64,000 nucleotides of DNA, taken from contig OZ253584.1 of NCBI GenBank assembly GCA_965263165.1, positions 2,560,747 through 2,624,746 on the forward strand. Reading direction: 5' to 3'. The translations under genes were made by a program, and so were the position numbers. Within the stretch, counting starts at the first letter, position 1; each line of letters starts with the position of its first letter. The stretch comes from Dehalococcoidia bacterium. Lineage in GTDB: Bacteria; Chloroflexota; Dehalococcoidia; Lucifugimonadales; SAR202-VII-2. This document shows, in pieces, positions 37,694-45,312 of this stretch. The notes below the pieces were generated by a model, which saw nothing but the letters and a program-made list of their open reading frames with translations, was not told the DNA's origin and did not search any database.

Positions 37694-38788
37694 CTACTCG
37701 TAGACGATGACGCCTCGGCCGGGCAGGCCGCGCTCCAGGTCTCCGTAGGCCTCGTTGACTTGGTCTATGCCGTAGGCGCGTTGCTTGAGGTTCGCCAGGT
37801 CCAGCTTGCCCTCCTGCACCAGCCGCGTCAGTTTGGGAAAGTCCACGTGGGCGCGCGCCGATCCGTAGTAGCAGCCCTTGACGACCTTCTCCATGCGGGT
37901 AAGCGTCGTCAGATCGACTGACAGGGCTTCGCCCACCGGCGCCAACCCGACGATGGTCACGGTCCCGGCCTTGCGGGCGGCGTCGTAGGCAACCTTGGAC
38001 GTTGCTGCGCCCCCAAAGGACTCGAAGGTGTAGTCGGCGCCAAGGCCTCCGGTGAGCTCCTTGATGCGGGCCACGGGATCTTCCCTGGATGCGTTGACGG
38101 CGTCTGTGGCGCCGAACTGCGCGGCCATCTGCAATGCCTCGTCGCTAACGTCCACGGCGATGATCGTCCCGGCGTTGACCAGGCGGGCGCCCTGCAGGAT
38201 GTTGAGCCCCACTCCGCCGCAACCGATCACGGCAACGCTGCTGCCTGCCTCAACCTGGGCCGTGTTGATCACGGCGCCCACGCCCGTGGGGACGCTGCAC
38301 CCCATGAGGGCCGCCTGGTCCAGCGGAAACCCCTGCGGAAGCTTCACGCACGCCGAGGCGGGCACCACGGCATACTGTCCAAAGCAGCCGAGCTTTGCGA
38401 ATTGGTAGATCTCAGTGTCGCCCTTGCGGAGGCGGGTTGTGCCGTCCATCAAGGCGCCCCTGGCCACGGAGCCCACGTCGCAGAGATACGGACGGCCAAT
38501 GCTGCAATAGTGGCAGAAGCCGCAGTTGGGGACGAAGCTGAGGATAACGGGGTCGCCCACGCCGATGGTGGATACGCCGGGCCCCAACTCTTCCACAATG
38601 GCCGCTCCTTCGTGGCCCAGCACGACAGGCATCATGAAGGGAGCGTGGCCCACCATGAAATGGTAGTCGCTCCGACAGACTCCGGCGGAGGCCATGCGCA
38701 CCAGGACCTCGTTCTCGCGAGGCGGCAGGACCTCCAACTCCGCAATGACCATGGGTGTATTGGGCTCGTAGAGAACAGCCGCTTTCAT
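37694..38788 (-). CDS. Zn-dependent alcohol dehydrogenase (class III-like)
   Basis: CRSD, GHEGA, CGFCHYC...C, GCGGVG. Confidence 0.92.
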   Translation of the reverse strand: MKAAVLYEPNTPMVIAELEVLPPRENEVLVRMASAGVCRSDYHFMVGHAPFMMPVVLGHEGAAIVEELGPGVSTIGVGDPVILSFVPNCGFCHYCSIGRPYLCDVGSVARGALMDGTTRLRKGDTEIYQFAKLGCFGQYAVVPASACVKLPQGFPLDQAALMGCSVPTGVGAVINTAQVEAGSSVAVIGCGGVGLNILQGARLVNAGTIIAVDVSDEALQMAAQFGATDAVNASREDPVARIKELTGGLGADYTFESFGGAATSKVAYDAARKAGTVTIVGLAPVGEALSVDLTTLTRMEKVVKGCYYGSARAHVDFPKLTRLVQEGKLDLANLKQRAYGIDQVNEAYGDLERGLPGRGVIVYE

Positions 38789-38875
38789 GGTTTGATTCCT
38801 CCCTTGCTGTGTGGGCCCGGCCCTTCGGGGCCAAACTTTCCTAGCTTCAACTGCGATTCAGGCTCTTGAACAGCG

Positions 38876-39646
38876 CTAGCGAGCGTCTCTCCGCGGCATG
38901 AAAAAGTCGTCGCGGACGAAGATGTTTCCGGTCAGGTAGTAACCCTGGGGAGAGGCGAGCAGCACCGCCAGCGGAGCAATGTCCTCCGGCAAGCCGACTG
39001 TGTTCGCTTCACGTTTGTGGGACTGTATCTGTTGCGGCATATCCCGACGCCACAACTCGGTGTCGGTGGCGCCGGGGGCGAAGGCATTCACCGTAATGCT
39101 GGAGGCCGCCAGCTCCTGGGCCAGGGCCCTGGTGAAGGCGATGACGCCTCCTTTGGACGCGACGTAATGGGCGTTGCCCACTGCCAGGGGGACCGCTCTG
39201 GGCCGCACCCCAAGCAGGGAGGCAAAGTTGATGATCCTTCCCTCTCCGCGGGTCTCCATGTGAGGGATCGAGGCCTTGCAACAGAGGTATGTTCCCTTCA
39301 AGTTCAGGTCCAGGATGCGGTCCCATTCATCTTCCGGCAGGTCTTTGAGGTTGAAGTTCCCGCCGCTGGCGGCCGTGTTCACGAGGACGTCCAATCCACC
39401 AAGTGCGTCGACCACCGACGCCACCGTCTGCGTCACCTGGGACGCATCCGAAATGTCGGCGGCGAATGCCTCGGCTTTGCCTCCCTCCTCCTTGATCTGC
39501 GCCTTCACGCTCTCAGCGCTGGCAAGCCGGTTGTCGACCAACGCAACGGTCGCACCGGACCGGGCCATCTCGAGGGCGAACGCCCTGCCGAAGCCCCCGC
39601 CCCCACCGGTGATGAGGGCCACCTTATCGTCCAATCGGATGTCCAT
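38876..39646 (-). CDS. SDR family oxidoreductase
   Basis: TGGGGGFG, YVASK. Confidence 0.92.
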   Translation of the reverse strand: MDIRLDDKVALITGGGGGFGRAFALEMARSGATVALVDNRLASAESVKAQIKEEGGKAEAFAADISDASQVTQTVASVVDALGGLDVLVNTAASGGNFNLKDLPEDEWDRILDLNLKGTYLCCKASIPHMETRGEGRIINFASLLGVRPRAVPLAVGNAHYVASKGGVIAFTRALAQELAASSITVNAFAPGATDTELWRRDMPQQIQSHKREANTVGLPEDIAPLAVLLASPQGYYLTGNIFVRDDFFMPRRDAR

Positions 39647-39670
39647 AGATTCTCCCTGGCGGGTGGGCGG

Positions 39671-40483
39671 CTAAGCTTGGGGCGAAGACCCGCCCCGGCC
39701 GCCGTTGACGTCCAAGACCGCTCCGGTGATGTAACCCGCAGCGTCGGAGGCGAGATAGGTCACAGCTGCGGCGTGCTCCTCAACGAGGCCCACGCGTCCC
39801 AGGGGCGTGCTGCTCAGCATTGCAGCCTCCACTGCCCCGCCTCCACCCTTCGTTCGATGAGGCGTCTCTATCAGCGACGGAGCGATGACGTTGACGCGGA
39901 TGGTGGGTGCCCATTCAGCGGCCATGGTCTTGGTCAGGCTGATGACGGCGGCTTTGGCGGCGCCGTATGACGCTTGTCCAGGACACGGCCCCTGCCCTGT
40001 GATTGAAGCCACGTTTACGATGGCGCCCCTGCCCTGCTCCATCATCGCCGGGGCGACTGCGCGGCTGCAGAGAAAGGCCGTGACGACGTTCAGGCGATAG
40101 GCCTCCATCATGTCGCGGCTGCCTATTTCGAGGATGGGACCCTTCGTGAACGTTTCCCCCCAGCTTCCCTCGGCGTTGTTGACCAGGATGTCGACGCGCC
40201 CGAACTCCGCCAGGGCCTTCTCGACAATGCCGTCCACCTGCGCCTCATCCCTAACGTCGGCGGTGATGCCAATGGCGCGGCGTCCCTTGGCCCGAAGCTC
40301 CTCAACGGCCGCATTGACAGGAGCGTGAGGGCGTTCGGCGCCGCTGGTCACAGCCTCTGGGAGTCTGGCCACGACGACGATATTGGCGCCGGCGTCGGCA
40401 AGGGAATGGGCTATGCCCCGCCCTAGCCCCTGGCTGCCACCGGTCACAATGGCGACCCTGCCTTCGAGATCGAACAGCGACAT
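39671..40483 (-). CDS. SDR family oxidoreductase
   Basis: TGGSQGLG, YGAAK. Confidence 0.92.
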   Translation of the reverse strand: MSLFDLEGRVAIVTGGSQGLGRGIAHSLADAGANIVVVARLPEAVTSGAERPHAPVNAAVEELRAKGRRAIGITADVRDEAQVDGIVEKALAEFGRVDILVNNAEGSWGETFTKGPILEIGSRDMMEAYRLNVVTAFLCSRAVAPAMMEQGRGAIVNVASITGQGPCPGQASYGAAKAAVISLTKTMAAEWAPTIRVNVIAPSLIETPHRTKGGGGAVEAAMLSSTPLGRVGLVEEHAAAVTYLASDAAGYITGAVLDVNGGRGGSSPQA

Positions 40484-40569
40484 GCGCCACCTGCAAGGGA
40501 GGGATGTTCCGCCTTCGGAGCAGGGCTATTATGCTGGAACGTTGGAGCGGGGGCAAGGGCAACGGCGTG

Positions 40570-40660
40570 GCGGCGCTGTTGTCCCGCCCGCCACCCTCAA
40601 AGGTTCTTGTGGGGGATACCCCCACTCTCCCGGCAGGGGCTGCGCCCCCTGCACCCCTAC
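40570..40660 (+). repeat. Intergenic repeat family B, divergent copy 5
   Basis: gttgtcccgccc...gtgggggatacccccac...ggggctgcgccccctgcacccc. Confidence 0.7.
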
Positions 40661-40793
40661 CTTGAGGACTGTAAGGAGAGGCTGGCAGCTTGCCCCTATT
40701 CTCAGTCTCGAACGGTCTTGCGGGGGCCGCCTCGACTGCCAGCGCGGCCCCGCCTATAATGAGCATTGCACCCTTGCCGCTCAGGAGTTCTCC

Positions 40794-41402
40794 TTGCCAG
40801 CATCCGCTCTTCGCCTTGCCCTAAAAGAATGGGCGGTCACCGTCAAGGCCATGGATGAAGGACGGCAGATACTCCTACTGCGAAAGGGAGGCATCCGGGA
40901 GGAAGCAAAGGAGTTTCGCCTGCTTCATCCCCGCTTTCTTCTCTACCCCAGCTACGAGCATCAACAGGAGTCGCTGCTGCAACCCGCGTTCCACAGCGCC
41001 CTTGCCGCCACGTTCCGGGAACGGCCGGAAGAGGGCTTCGCTCTCTTCACTCATTGGGGCGAGGTCACTGAATCGTTCGACATCATGGAGGAAGAGCGGG
41101 TGGCGGCGCTGACCCCGCTCCACATCTGGACAGCGGAGTACGCGGCCAAACGACTCCACTGGCGGCCCCGCAAGCCTCTCATGGCCATGCTGGTGCGCCT
41201 GTACCGGCTTCCGGCGGCGCGCCTCGTTCCGGTGTTGCCCCGGTACGCCGGTTGCACCTCTTGGGTGGAGCTGGAAGACGAGATACCCGTCGAAGGATCG
41301 GTTCCCGCCGTGTCAGAGAGCCGGTTCGCAGAGCAGTCAGAAGCGGCGCGCCGGATTCTGAGGACATCGATGTCTCCAACCACCGCAGAGGTTGCTGGGT
41401 GA
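40794..41402 (+). CDS. DUF1802-family protein
   Basis: ALKEWAV...GRQILLLRKGGIRE; TTG start after AGGAG; TATAAT at 40755-40760. Confidence 0.8.
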   Translation: MPASALRLALKEWAVTVKAMDEGRQILLLRKGGIREEAKEFRLLHPRFLLYPSYEHQQESLLQPAFHSALAATFRERPEEGFALFTHWGEVTESFDIMEEERVAALTPLHIWTAEYAAKRLHWRPRKPLMAMLVRLYRLPAARLVPVLPRYAGCTSWVELEDEIPVEGSVPAVSESRFAEQSEAARRILRTSMSPTTAEVAG

Positions 41403-42409
41403 AATACCGCAAGCTGGGACGCACTGATCTCGAACTGTCGGAGGTGGGTTTTGGGGTGTGGACTGTCAGCACGGGCTGGTGGGGCCGGATTGAGCCGTCC
41501 GACGCCGAGAGGCTGTTGCAACAGGCCCTCGACCTGGGCGTAACGTTCTTTGACACCGCTGACACCTATGGCCTGGGCGCCGGCGAGGAGATCCTGGCGA
41601 GGGCCTTCAAGAACCAGCGCCATGAAATCATCATCGGCGACAAGTTTGGTTACGACTGGTACGCCAACCGGGAGCGCACCGGCCACCAGGAGCGGCCGCA
41701 GAGGTGGGAGCCCGACTTCATCCGGTATGCCTGCGAGCAGTCTCTGCGCCGCCTTCAGACCGACTACATTGACCTCTATCAGCTCCACAACCCCCGTCTC
41801 GACGCCATAGAGCGGGACGAGATCTTCTCGATCCTCGACGCGTTGGTGGCGGAGGGGAAGATCCGGCATTACGGCATCGCTATTGGCCCAGACATCGGTT
41901 GGGAAGACGAGGGCATGGCCAGCATGCAGGAGCGCGGCGTCGAAAGCCTGCAGATCATCTACAGCGCCTTGGAGCAGCAGCCGGCCCGCAACTTCTTCCC
42001 GGTCGCTGAGGAGACGCAGACAGGCCTCCTGTCTCGCGTGCCCCACGCTTCGGAGGTGCTGACCGACGATTTTGTGGCCAAGCCACCGTCATTCGACGCT
42101 GACGATCACAGGGCCCATCGCCGTCAGCGGTGGTTGGACAACGCCATGAGGAAACGGGAGCAGGTGGTGTTCATGGGCGCCAGCGCCGGCAGGACACTGG
42201 CGCAGGCCGCCATTCAGTTCTGCCTCGCTGAGCCGACGATCGCCTCGGTGTTGCCGAACATTGTGCGACCGGACCAGTTGAGCGAGTTCGCGGCCGCACC
42301 GGAGAAGCCGCCACTGGAGCAGGACGAGTTGGCGCACCTGAAAGAGCGCTTCGATGAGAACTTCGGCTTGGAGCCCCTACCGGAGGAAGCCCTGCGCTCG
42401 TCGCGCTAG
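41399..42409 (+). CDS. Aldo/keto reductase
   Basis: YRKLGRTDLELSEVGFG, FDTADTYG, SLRRLQTDYIDLYQLH; GTG overlaps the upstream stop. Confidence 0.92.
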   Translation: MKYRKLGRTDLELSEVGFGVWTVSTGWWGRIEPSDAERLLQQALDLGVTFFDTADTYGLGAGEEILARAFKNQRHEIIIGDKFGYDWYANRERTGHQERPQRWEPDFIRYACEQSLRRLQTDYIDLYQLHNPRLDAIERDEIFSILDALVAEGKIRHYGIAIGPDIGWEDEGMASMQERGVESLQIIYSALEQQPARNFFPVAEETQTGLLSRVPHASEVLTDDFVAKPPSFDADDHRAHRRQRWLDNAMRKREQVVFMGASAGRTLAQAAIQFCLAEPTIASVLPNIVRPDQLSEFAAAPEKPPLEQDELAHLKERFDENFGLEPLPEEALRSSR

Positions 42410-42687
42410 GAGTCGGCGAAGATCCCTTCTCCGACAAAGTGGTCCGCCGCCTCTTCGAAGGTGGTGTCGGGCGGGGGTATCACCACATCAGACGGCACTA
42501 GCTCGTCCTCGGATAGTGGTTGCCCCTCAGAGCGCACGAGATCCTGCATCTGCTCGAACAGCGTGTGGAAAGCGTCGCGGTCGCCCTGGTCAACGACCTC
42601 GACGAGCTGGTTGTCGAGGTCGTTCAGCCTGGTGATAAGGTCGTCGTCTAACCTGAATTGGCCCGCCGTCACAATTCGTACGATCAT
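42406..42687 (-). CDS. pspAA: PspA-associated protein PspAA
   Basis: MIVRIVTAGQFRL...PSDVVIPPPD; coupled to the pspA stop. Confidence 0.8.
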   Translation of the reverse strand: MIVRIVTAGQFRLDDDLITRLNDLDNQLVEVVDQGDRDAFHTLFEQMQDLVRSEGQPLSEDELVPSDVVIPPPDTTFEEAADHFVGEGIFADS

Positions 42688-43415
42688 GAGGCACCGTCCC
42701 CCAGTTGCTTGTTGTCGCCGCTCCCAAGCTGACGCCTCATTGCCTCCAGCTCCAGGTCGACGTTCTGGCCGGCCGTAAGCTCCGCAAGCTCCCTATCGAG
42801 GCTGTCACCTGACAGCGAAACGTCGTCTAGGACGCCCGAATCGGCAAGCTGGTCAATGGCTGATGACCTGGAGCGCATCGCCTCGATCTTGTGCTCCGCT
42901 CGCTCCACAGCGAGGCCGACGTCCGCCATCTCCTCGGAGACGCCTGTGAGGGCTTCACCGATCTTCACGCTGGCCTCGGCGGCGGTGTATTGGGCCTTCA
43001 GACTCTCCCGGCGGGTGCGGAACGCTTCGACCTTAGCCGACAGCCGCTGCTCAGAGAGGGTCAGGCGCTCCTGTTCCTCCTCGACGCCGGTAATCTGTTG
43101 CTCAAGCCCCTCCAACTCAATGAGGGCGGCCTGCTTCCGTTGTAGGGCGAGCCGGGCCAGGTCCTCGCGGCCCAACTCCATTGCCTGCCGCGCCTGTTCC
43201 TCGAGCTTGGGAATCTTGGCGCTGACCTTCTCCGACTGCATCTCCAGGCGGCGGCGGGAGGAGGCAACTTCAACCACGCCCTGCTTCACCTTGCGCAGCA
43301 GTTCAACCTGCTTCTCGTAGGAGTAGTCGAGCGTCTGACGGGGGTCTTCGGCTCTGTCGAGGACGGAGCTCATCTTGGACTTGAGGATCATTGATGTCCG
43401 TGAGAGCAGACCCAT
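42684..43415 (-). CDS. pspA: PspA/IM30 family protein (own RBS, but in frame with the upstream cytochrome c)
   Basis: AEDPRQTLDYSYEKQ, REDLARLAL, coiled coil; GGAGG before the ATG at 43415. Confidence 0.9.
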   Translation of the reverse strand: MGLLSRTSMILKSKMSSVLDRAEDPRQTLDYSYEKQVELLRKVKQGVVEVASSRRRLEMQSEKVSAKIPKLEEQARQAMELGREDLARLALQRKQAALIELEGLEQQITGVEEEQERLTLSEQRLSAKVEAFRTRRESLKAQYTAAEASVKIGEALTGVSEEMADVGLAVERAEHKIEAMRSRSSAIDQLADSGVLDDVSLSGDSLDRELAELTAGQNVDLELEAMRRQLGSGDNKQLGDGAS

Positions 43416-44000
43416 GGCGCCTCCCGTTGGCGGGTCCTGCGGCGCGCGTGGCGCGCCTCGTGGATACCGCTTCTGTATCGTTTTTATGTACGCTATGAGG
43501 GCGCGAACGTCGTCCTGGGACATGATGCCGGCGTAGGCGGCGGGCATCATATTCGGTTGAAAGCCATCCACGAGCTTCGCGCCCGGTTCCATGATGGACT
43601 CCTCGAGGTAGGCGTCGTCCACCAAGACGGTCGAGCCGTCCGATAGAGTCTCGGTACTGCCGAAGACCCCCAGCCAGGTGGGGCCAATGCCGCTGCTGCC
43701 ATCCAGGGAGTGACACGCTATGCAGCCATTGGCTTGGGCCACGGCCTCTCCAATCGCCGCGAGGTCTGGTTCGCCATCGCCGTTGGAAGACGGTTCATGG
43801 CCATCACTGCCGGGCGGGGGAGGCGTGGGCGACGGGGTGATGTCGTCGATGGTAAGGCTGGTGTCGATGCCCGAAGCCGGGGGAGGATTGGCGCTGGCCT
43901 GCCAGCCGTAGCGGGCGGCCCGGCAGCCGCTCAGCGCAACGACGAGGATCAAGGCGACGATGGCGACAAGCAGGGCCTTTCGGAGGAGGGTGAAGCTCAT
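43416..44000 (-). CDS. Lipoprotein monoheme cytochrome c; no stop before pspA
   Basis: Lipobox LSGC, CIACH heme motif, GPTW..DDAYLEESI..MMP typical of CoxB-type cytochrome c domains; extended -10 TGGTACTAT at 44051-44059. Confidence 0.85.
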
Positions 44001-44116
44001 GCCGCGGGGCTCTCCGTGGGTGTGATTGTCGAAGCTGTCCACGGCCAGCCATAGTACCACAGATTGGGCCGAGGCTGCATCCGCGGCTCGGGGTTGGCGC
44101 ACCCCTGCCCCAGTCT

Positions 44117-44190
44117 GTCCCTTCCCCCGACTAACAGGGAAGGTGTGTTGCGCGTCACTACCCCCCGTACTCGGGGGCAGGGAGGAAGGG
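44117..44190. repeat. REP-like family A copies (two degenerate)
   Basis: gtcccttcccccgac...gggaagg and ccccccgtactcgggggcaggga. Confidence 0.65.
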
Positions 44191-44211
44191 GGTCCCATTC
44201 CCTCCGGGCCC

Positions 44212-45312
44212 CTAGCCGCCGTTCAGCCGGTAGAAGACCTCCGAGTTCGTGTGCCGGATGCGCGCCTTCGCTAGGTCGTCAATCCCCTCCTGCTCCAGCA
44301 CTTCCTCCAACTCGTGCTTGCACATCTCGTTGTTCACTTCGTGCGGAAAGTCCGACGAGAAGAACAGGAACTTCGGCCCCGCCTCCCGCACCGCCGCCGG
44401 AATGAACGGCTCGTTCCCCTCACACCCCACGTAGATCCGGTCTTCCTTGATGTGCCGTTTGATGTAGTCGCTCACCCGCTCACCCGCCCGCAACTGGATC
44501 AGCTCCTCCCGCGGGTCCTGGTGGATGTGCGTCTCATACGACCGGTCGAACCGCTCCAGACACAGCATGAACCACGAGATGCCCCCCTCCAGAAACCCCC
44601 ACTTGACGTTGGGGTACTTCTCCAGCAGCCCGTTGAACACCACCCCCGCAAACCCGATCATCTGGCCGAAGGGGTGCCCAAGGGCGTGCACCGGGGCGTA
44701 GACGTTCATGTGGTCGAAGCCGAAGTTCTCGTGGGAACCGCCGTGCACGGCCATGGCGCACTTCAGGCGGTCGGCCTCTTCATAGACCGGCCAGTAGTCC
44801 TTGGCGCCGATGTGGTCCTTGAACCCGTTGGAGGGCAGCATTGCCCCCACCATGCCCAACTCTTCCACGCACCTGCGGAGCTCCTTGATGGCCTCTCCCG
44901 GCTCCTGCATAGGGATGAGCCCCACGGCCTTGAAGCGGGAGTCCCGCTTCAGGTAGGTGTCGTACAGCCAGTTGTTGTACGCCTGGGCCAGGGCAACGGC
45001 CCAGTCCCGGTTGACCACGTTGCCGTAGGCAAGCCCGTGCGTGGGATAGAGCACGGCGGAGTCGATGCCGACGTCGTCGGCGAAGTCAACCCACCCATCG
45101 ACGCCGACGGGGGCAAAGGACCCCTCCGGCACCTCGACGGGGTTCGCCGAGTGGAAGTGGTCTATGGGCGGGAAGAGCTGGCCTCTGCCGCCTGGGCCGA
45201 ATATGCGGTCCCTGAATCTGGGGGGCATGTACTGGATGATGGCTGGGATGTCTTCATTCAGATGGCCGTCGCCATCAACAACGGTTTCCAGGTCTACTTC
45301 CTTGAGCACCAT
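44212..45312 (-). CDS. Amidohydrolase family 2 protein (decarboxylase/hydrolase-like)
   Basis: DGDGH, LYPT, AVHGG, FLEGG, SSDFPHE. Confidence 0.88.
   Translation of the reverse strand: MVLKEVDLETVVDGDGHLNEDIPAIIQYMPPRFRDRIFGPGGRGQLFPPIDHFHSANPVEVPEGSFAPVGVDGWVDFADDVGIDSAVLYPTHGLAYGNVVNRDWAVALAQAYNNWLYDTYLKRDSRFKAVGLIPMQEPGEAIKELRRCVEELGMVGAMLPSNGFKDHIGAKDYWPVYEEADRLKCAMAVHGGSHENFGFDHMNVYAPVHALGHPFGQMIGFAGVVFNGLLEKYPNVKWGFLEGGISWFMLCLERFDRSYETHIHQDPREELIQLRAGERVSDYIKRHIKEDRIYVGCEGNEPFIPAAVREAGPKFLFFSSDFPHEVNNEMCKHELEEVLEQEGIDDLAKARIRHTNSEVFYRLNGG

Follow-up and report, generated by a model that had tools for sequence, protein, structure and literature searches.

Probable recent loss of a stop codon joins the reading frames of a lipoprotein cytochrome c and PspA in a single population of a Dehalococcoidia bacterium

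Introduction

Can a single protein hold both a cytochrome c lipoprotein and PspA, whose places are on opposite sides of the membrane? The question is raised by one minus-strand reading frame of the window, by which we mean the whole stretch of 64,000 nucleotides that was analysed, from an uncultured, SAR202-like member of the Dehalococcoidia. From its conserved start codon, this frame passes without a stop through a lipoprotein-type class I cytochrome c and then through a full-length member of the PspA/IM30 family. An earlier note on this DNA had offered two readings: that a stop codon had recently been lost, or that the locus makes two products and links respiration to envelope-stress repair. 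Here, we describe the parts of the frame, follow the junction through the relatives and through public sequencing runs, and weigh the explanations for it.

The fused frame and its parts

The features that the argument needs, all on the minus strand, are as follows.

44001..44070, minus strand: conserved upstream element of the cytochrome c gene (alignment of the window with the relatives L001, L003 and L008)
43473..44000, minus strand: lipoprotein-type class I cytochrome c gene (Pfam Cytochrom_C, E 2.6e-08)
43470..43472, minus strand: apparently lost stop codon, AAG (Lys) here and TAG in all relatives (junction alignment)
43416..43469, minus strand: presumed former intergenic spacer of 54 nt, now an 18-codon linker, RYPRGAPRAPQDPPTGGA (sequence and fold)
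42684..43415, minus strand: pspA (PspA/IM30 family), 243 aa from its own ATG (Pfam PspA_IM30)
42406..42687, minus strand: pspAA (PspA-associated protein A), 93 aa (Pfam PspAA, E 5.5e-31)

The frame is a single ORF that is open from 44198 to 42684. Its true start is the ATG at 44000, which is preceded by GGAGAG and is conserved as the start in the relatives; counted from there, the frame has 438 aa (44000..42684). The earlier note had seen no stop between the CxxCH domain and PspA, and the ORF check upholds both this observation and the coordinates given with it. The linker that had been quoted, KRYPRGAPRAPQDPPTGGA, is present in frame, as is the hairpin that had been described in the spacer, a 7-bp G+C hairpin at 43457-43441 (GGCGCGC at 43457-43451, loop CAC, GCGCGCC at 43447-43441). 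PspA does keep a ribosome-binding site of its own, GGGAGG at 43425-43420, which stands 4 nt before the ATG at 43415-43413. The pspAA ORF (42687..42406) then begins within an ATGA overlap with the pspA stop.

The upstream part of the frame is a class I c-type cytochrome (PF00034), having a CxxCH motif, a distal Met and a profile match; heme attachment is predicted. The Pfam Cytochrom_C match extends over aa 82-175 of the fused ORF with a score above the gathering score, the heme motif CIACH occupies aa 93-97 (43724-43710), and the distal MMP is at aa 151-153. The N-terminus, MSFTLLRKALLVAIVALILVVALSGC, is a predicted signal peptide with a lipobox, L-S-G-C, at aa 23-26 (the pattern [LVI][ASTVI][GAS]C, matched by eye), in which the Cys26 codon is at 43925-43923, and the product also contains a Pro/Thr/Ser-rich tether. 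Cys26, CxxCH and MMP are invariant in four relatives, all four of which end in ...YIKT(I/L)Q, and residues -3 to -1 of the lipobox are LGA in L003 and LSA in L008. The representative of the 50%-identity cluster, P0124, is a stand-alone 176-aa protein that is 95% identical and ends in ...AYIKTIQ. Judged from these sequences, the ancestral cytochrome c product has 176 aa and the same ...AYIKTIQ end, and it would be a small protein that a lipid anchors on the outside of the membrane. Among known cytochromes, the small c-type lipoproteins found in monoderm bacteria, Bacillus cytochrome c-551 for instance, are presumably close in kind.

Among solved structures, the best match is to PDB 1W2L, a cytochrome c domain from subunit II of the Rhodothermus marinus caa3-type oxidase, with E 1.4e-25 over aa 80-174. 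The two have in common the class I fold, CxxCH and the distal Met; unlike 1W2L, however, the cytochrome c of the window corresponds to a stand-alone 176-aa lipoprotein, outside any oxidase subunit. As a separate observation on this gene, the strain of run X6 has about 15 of its 35 differences from the window within 200 bases (43922-44115), in the signal-peptide/upstream region of the cytochrome c.

The PspA–PspAA dyad

The downstream part of the frame belongs to the PspA/IM30 family (PF04012). The PspA_IM30 profile is matched at aa 197-424 of the fused ORF with E 7.5e-26, over profile positions 1-217 of 220, a full-length match from the N-terminal amphipathic helix onwards, and the protein has the canonical N-terminus of the family, MGLLSR... 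Its identity to stand-alone PspA proteins is 99-60% among the best 120 of 2361 matches, and the PspA match starts at query residue 1 in nearly all of 80 related loci. With the NCBIfam equivalog models for proteobacterial PspA and for LiaH, the scores of the window PspA are under the cut-offs; thus, it is a family member that is the equivalog of neither.

The ORF directly downstream of pspA encodes a PspAA protein (PF22743), which matches profile positions 1-91 of 92. In most of 86 related loci, which come from Chloroflexota, Thermoleophilia and Methanococcoides, the same gene is directly 3′ of pspA. This PspA–PspAA dyad has been described in Actinobacteria, Chloroflexi and archaea (PMC11237479, mSystems 2024), and the window shares with it the full-length PspA_IM30 protein followed by the gene for a PspAA of about 92 aa, here coupled by the ATGA. 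It departs from the described dyad in that a narrow SAR202-like clade has a lipoprotein cytochrome c gene 54-57 nt upstream, and in that the population of the window has also, it appears, lost the stop codon of that gene. According to the same survey of PSP systems, more than 98% of PspA homologues are single-domain; the word "cytochrome" occurs in it 0 times, and neither a cytochrome partner nor a fusion is reported (PMC11237479).

Two related loci deserve mention for their surroundings. In a relative with 64% identity (L090, 4402-6001), the dyad has PspAB and an M48/M56 metallopeptidase as neighbours; this is the other PspAA context of PMC11237479 and is absent from the window. Loci L015 and L016 are the same PspA–PspAA locus at both ends of contig DATCLE010000108.1 (25090 bases), in opposite orientation. 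Such an arrangement points to a terminal duplication in inverted form, which probably arose in assembly.

The stop codon in relatives and in sequencing runs

If the two domains come from two genes, what stands at the end of the cytochrome c gene elsewhere? The codon that follows ...AYIKTIQ is AAG in the window (43472..43470) and TAG in all relatives of the junction alignment; on the plus strand, base 43472 is T in the window and A elsewhere. Among these relatives, L001, L002 and L007 are of the same species as the window, L007 being the species representative, a Dehalococcoidia MAG; L003-L006 are a lineage with 90% PspA identity, and L008 is a MAG labelled SAR202-VII-2. The junction reads ...ACG ATA CAG TAG in L001 and L002, which have 99% PspA identity, and ...ACG CTT CAG TAG in L003, L004 and L006, with 90%. 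The cytochrome c ORF of L007 and of L008 ends at the same place, likewise with TAG.

The sequencing runs draw the same line between one sample and all others. Logan contigs of four runs from one sample (X1, X2, X3 and X8) are identical to the window and carry AAG, and that of X2 shows 0 differences over 6258 bases (38000-44257). This sample is probably the one from which the window was assembled. On the other side are 12 runs from 10 other samples and 9 studies, with a locus identity of 95-99.9%, all of which read A at 43472 and hence TAG; the closest of them, X4, has 4 differences in 3351 bases, and site 43472 is among them.

Since TAG is found in all relatives and in the other samples, it is the ancestral codon and is widely maintained, and AAG is recent. 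As far as public data show, the change to AAG is confined to one population. The suspicion of the earlier note that a stop had recently been lost was therefore right in substance, as TAG follows ...YIKTIQ in relatives and in near-identical strains, but the change is TAG to AAG, not the TAG to CAG given there as an example.

Recurrence of the fusion and of the gene pair

A fused frame may be a mutation in one population and still resemble an architecture known from other organisms. No such architecture was found. Among the best 120 of 2361 protein matches to the full fusion query there is no cytochrome c–PspA fusion; these homologues are stand-alone PspA proteins of 240-262 aa that cover at most 55% of the query. 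A second query spanned the junction, running from the cytochrome c domain through the linker to residue 60 of PspA; among 1.84 billion cluster representatives, its best 150 matches are cytochromes c, many of them with several heme domains, and PspA is absent from these 150. The gene-position index has no entry for exactly this 438-aa product. The relatives, as well as the 12 other runs, all have the stop. The fusion thus fails the test of recurrence and is not a conserved protein architecture.

What about the gene pair? On the contigs of the closest relatives, a separate cytochrome c gene of 176-177 aa is found just upstream of pspA, and this adjacency occurs only in L001-L008, in which PspA identity is at least 88%. 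In a survey of 80 PspA loci, taken at one genome per species, a CxxCH gene is upstream of PspA only in L007 and L008, and the cytochrome c–pspA adjacency is absent from the other 78 PspA–PspAA loci. It is already absent at 76%, 70% and 64% PspA identity, where DUF72, ABC-transporter ATPases or gyrA are found upstream instead. As the adjacency does not reach across distant lineages and is limited to L001-L008, we regard it as peculiar to a narrow SAR202-like clade, and neither as a general association nor as a conserved cytochrome c–pspA operon.

These results bear on two further points of the earlier note. It had proposed a search among homologues for the fusion or the adjacency, and two large protein searches yielded no fusion, with adjacency in the narrow clade only. 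It had also named what would count against its reading, namely a stop after YIKT in reads or relatives together with genes unlinked elsewhere. The stop is indeed there, after the YIKTIQ of the relatives; the unlinking is only partial, for the genes are still adjacent in the closest clade.

Other long open stretches before pspA were considered and set aside. In six loci of Thermoleophilia/Miltoncostaeaceae (L057, L058, L059, L037, L047 and L052), the pspA frame is open for 430-947 codons upstream; in such very G+C-rich DNA, the likeliest source of these stretches is an alternative reading frame of a large gene lying upstream. Separately, runs X5 and X6 have contigs with joints that pass over 1051 bases (window 40194 to 41246) or 4273 bases (40194 to 44468), and the larger skip would delete the DUF1802/aldo-keto reductase genes together with the whole cytochrome c–pspA–pspAA block. 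Given that the shorter side of these joints is 21 letters, they may stem from repeats or from other organisms.

Spacer, upstream element and transcription

For one substitution to join two ORFs, the spacer between them must be in frame and open. In the species of the window it is both: the spacers of L001, L002 and L007 are also 54 nt long, in frame and stop-free, so that the loss of the stop alone was enough to join the ORFs. The chance of an in-frame, stop-free path over the 18 codons that follow the lost stop is about 0.2, calculated from the local base composition, and at about 1 in 5 no special explanation is necessary. In L003-L006, the spacer has 56 nt and is out of frame, and in L008 it has 57 nt and contains an in-frame stop; accordingly, the same mutation would leave the genes unfused there. 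The spacer is also the most diverged segment relative to L001, with 91.2% identity, compared with 95-97% in the coding parts.

A G+C-rich hairpin is found in the spacer in three lineages, at a like position and with differing sequence (window 43441-43457, L003 at about 2960-2985, L008 at about 2950-2975). These hairpins are not significantly more stable than shuffled sequence (fold z from -1.85 to +0.04). The hairpin could be an intercistronic stabiliser or a partial terminator.

Upstream of the cytochrome c gene, about 70 nt (44001-44070) are nearly invariant in the window, L001, L003 and L008, and the remaining intergenic DNA cannot be aligned. The element consists of an extended -10-like TGgTACTAT (44059-44051), a leader, GGCTGGCCGTGGACAGCTTCGAC, and the ribosome-binding site GGAGAG. 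That a block should remain invariant amid unalignable DNA suggests that there is a promoter in it, from which pspA may be co-transcribed; judged by its conservation, the element is probably where the gene block has its promoter and 5′ UTR. A scan of 42200-44400 for consensus sigma-70 promoters and terminators returned nothing relevant and did not report TGgTACTAT, and Rfam gave nothing above noise.

Metatranscriptome contigs of related strains (RNA runs X23-X25) cover parts of pspA/pspAA only, 43198-43412 and 42395-42616, and one RNA contig of X23 ends at 43412, at the start codon of PspA. None of the RNA contigs of X23-X25 crosses the cytochrome c–pspA junction, and most of the cytochrome c gene is uncovered by them. 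This gives a weak hint that pspA–pspAA RNA is commoner than cytochrome c RNA.

Competing explanations

Taking these results together, we consider it very probable that the locus is an ordinary three-gene block in which the cytochrome c stop was lost by one substitution, in the population of one sample, and that it is not a selected fusion. One objection is that nothing was lost and that the organism has TAG, the T at 43472 being an error that base calling or consensus building made systematically in the data of the source sample. In keeping with such an error, the AAG allele is present in runs of one sample only, the word depths are low (2.5-8.6), and neither library type nor sequencing platform is on record; since contigs hide minor alleles and there is a single source sample, there is room for a base-call error or a mixed population. 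Because the four own-sample runs agree with the window, its assembler cannot have introduced the base; an error in the sequencing of that sample would have escaped this comparison. Nevertheless, these runs differ in size, were assembled apart from the window, and give the same base in long contigs that are unbroken at the site, and the sequence context, ACCGCTTCTGTATCG, shows to the eye neither a homopolymer nor an obvious methylation motif. An artefact of this kind is, in our judgement, unlikely.

If the substitution is real, could the fused frame be adaptive, as a selected fusion or a dual-product locus that provides, for example, a PspA module held on an exported heme protein or a PspA output tuned by upstream translation? 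The gene order, the hairpin-bearing spacer of 54-57 nt and the upstream element have been kept in three lineages, over cytochrome c identities down to 66%, and the AAG allele appears dominant in its sample. On the other hand, no other strain, species or database protein is fused, the L003 spacer is out of frame and that of L008 is interrupted by its stop, the adjacency is gone at 76% PspA identity and below, and PMC11237479 knows no cytochrome partner. Moreover, the N-terminal helix of PspA begins at Met1 in every relative; in the fusion it would lie inside the chain, and the domain would be sent across the membrane. A product whose two parts have their places on either side of the membrane is unlikely to be useful, and we think selection for it very unlikely. 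The two-product locus linking respiration to envelope-stress repair, as put forward in the earlier note, likewise finds no support, there being no fusion in the relatives or in the two protein searches and an adjacency restricted to a narrow clade. It is tempting to propose that the SAR202-like cytochrome c, PspA and PspAA genes are an operon under the conserved upstream element and couple the state of extracytoplasmic electron transfer to membrane repair, with a stop-loss allele that is tolerated or even useful and yields free PspA as well as an exported PspA module tethered to the cytochrome; we hold this proposal to be highly improbable. One might also imagine a natural, low-level readthrough of the TAG, for which the spacer is kept open and which the window allele makes constitutive. 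The open, in-frame spacers of L001, L002 and L007 would fit such a scheme, but these are expected by chance about once in five, the open frame is conserved neither in L003-L006 nor in L008, and the spacer diverges faster than any other segment. As neither the frame nor the openness of the spacer is conserved, programmed TAG readthrough was rejected, and we give readthrough in general next to no credence.

Proposed outcome and significance

We return to the loss of the stop codon by a single substitution. A T-to-A change on the coding strand would have turned the TAG of the cytochrome c gene into AAG, and the frame would then continue across the spacer to the end of pspA. Translation begun at the cytochrome c ATG would give a 438-aa precursor, which the signal peptide would send through Sec. 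The exported product would be a cytochrome c tethered to the membrane, with PspA as its tail at the outer face and the N-terminal helix of PspA internal. This fused product would probably be non-functional as PspA and liable to degradation, with the cytochrome c compromised or unstable. Ribosomes at the retained GGGAGG and ATG would still make the cytoplasmic 243-aa PspA; we infer, from the conserved Met1 and the kept GGGAGG, that normal PspA is probably still made. PspAA, too, would still be made, by coupling at the ATGA. The likeliest outcome would be little or no loss of PspA function, and the stop-loss mutation is most likely neutral or mildly harmful, as well as recent.

In its mechanism, the case matches a generic stop-loss gene fusion, in which one substitution converts a stop into a sense codon and the upstream ORF runs on via an in-frame spacer. 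It is set apart by its two partners, one proper to each side of the membrane, and by the confinement of the allele to one sample. The locus as a whole is the known PspA–PspAA dyad with a clade-specific cytochrome c neighbour, and its fusion is of the generic stop-loss class.

As a clean and dated case, the locus shows one substitution making a chimeric ORF out of neighbours whose products belong across the membrane from each other, and it shows the form that such a stop-loss chimera takes in a metagenome-assembled genome. Its weight for biology in general is small. Annotators are warned not to derive a novel cytochrome c–PspA domain architecture from this genome. The clade-specific cytochrome c gene that precedes the PspA–PspAA dyad, together with its promoter-like leader, is a minor lead for the study of PSP systems in Chloroflexota.
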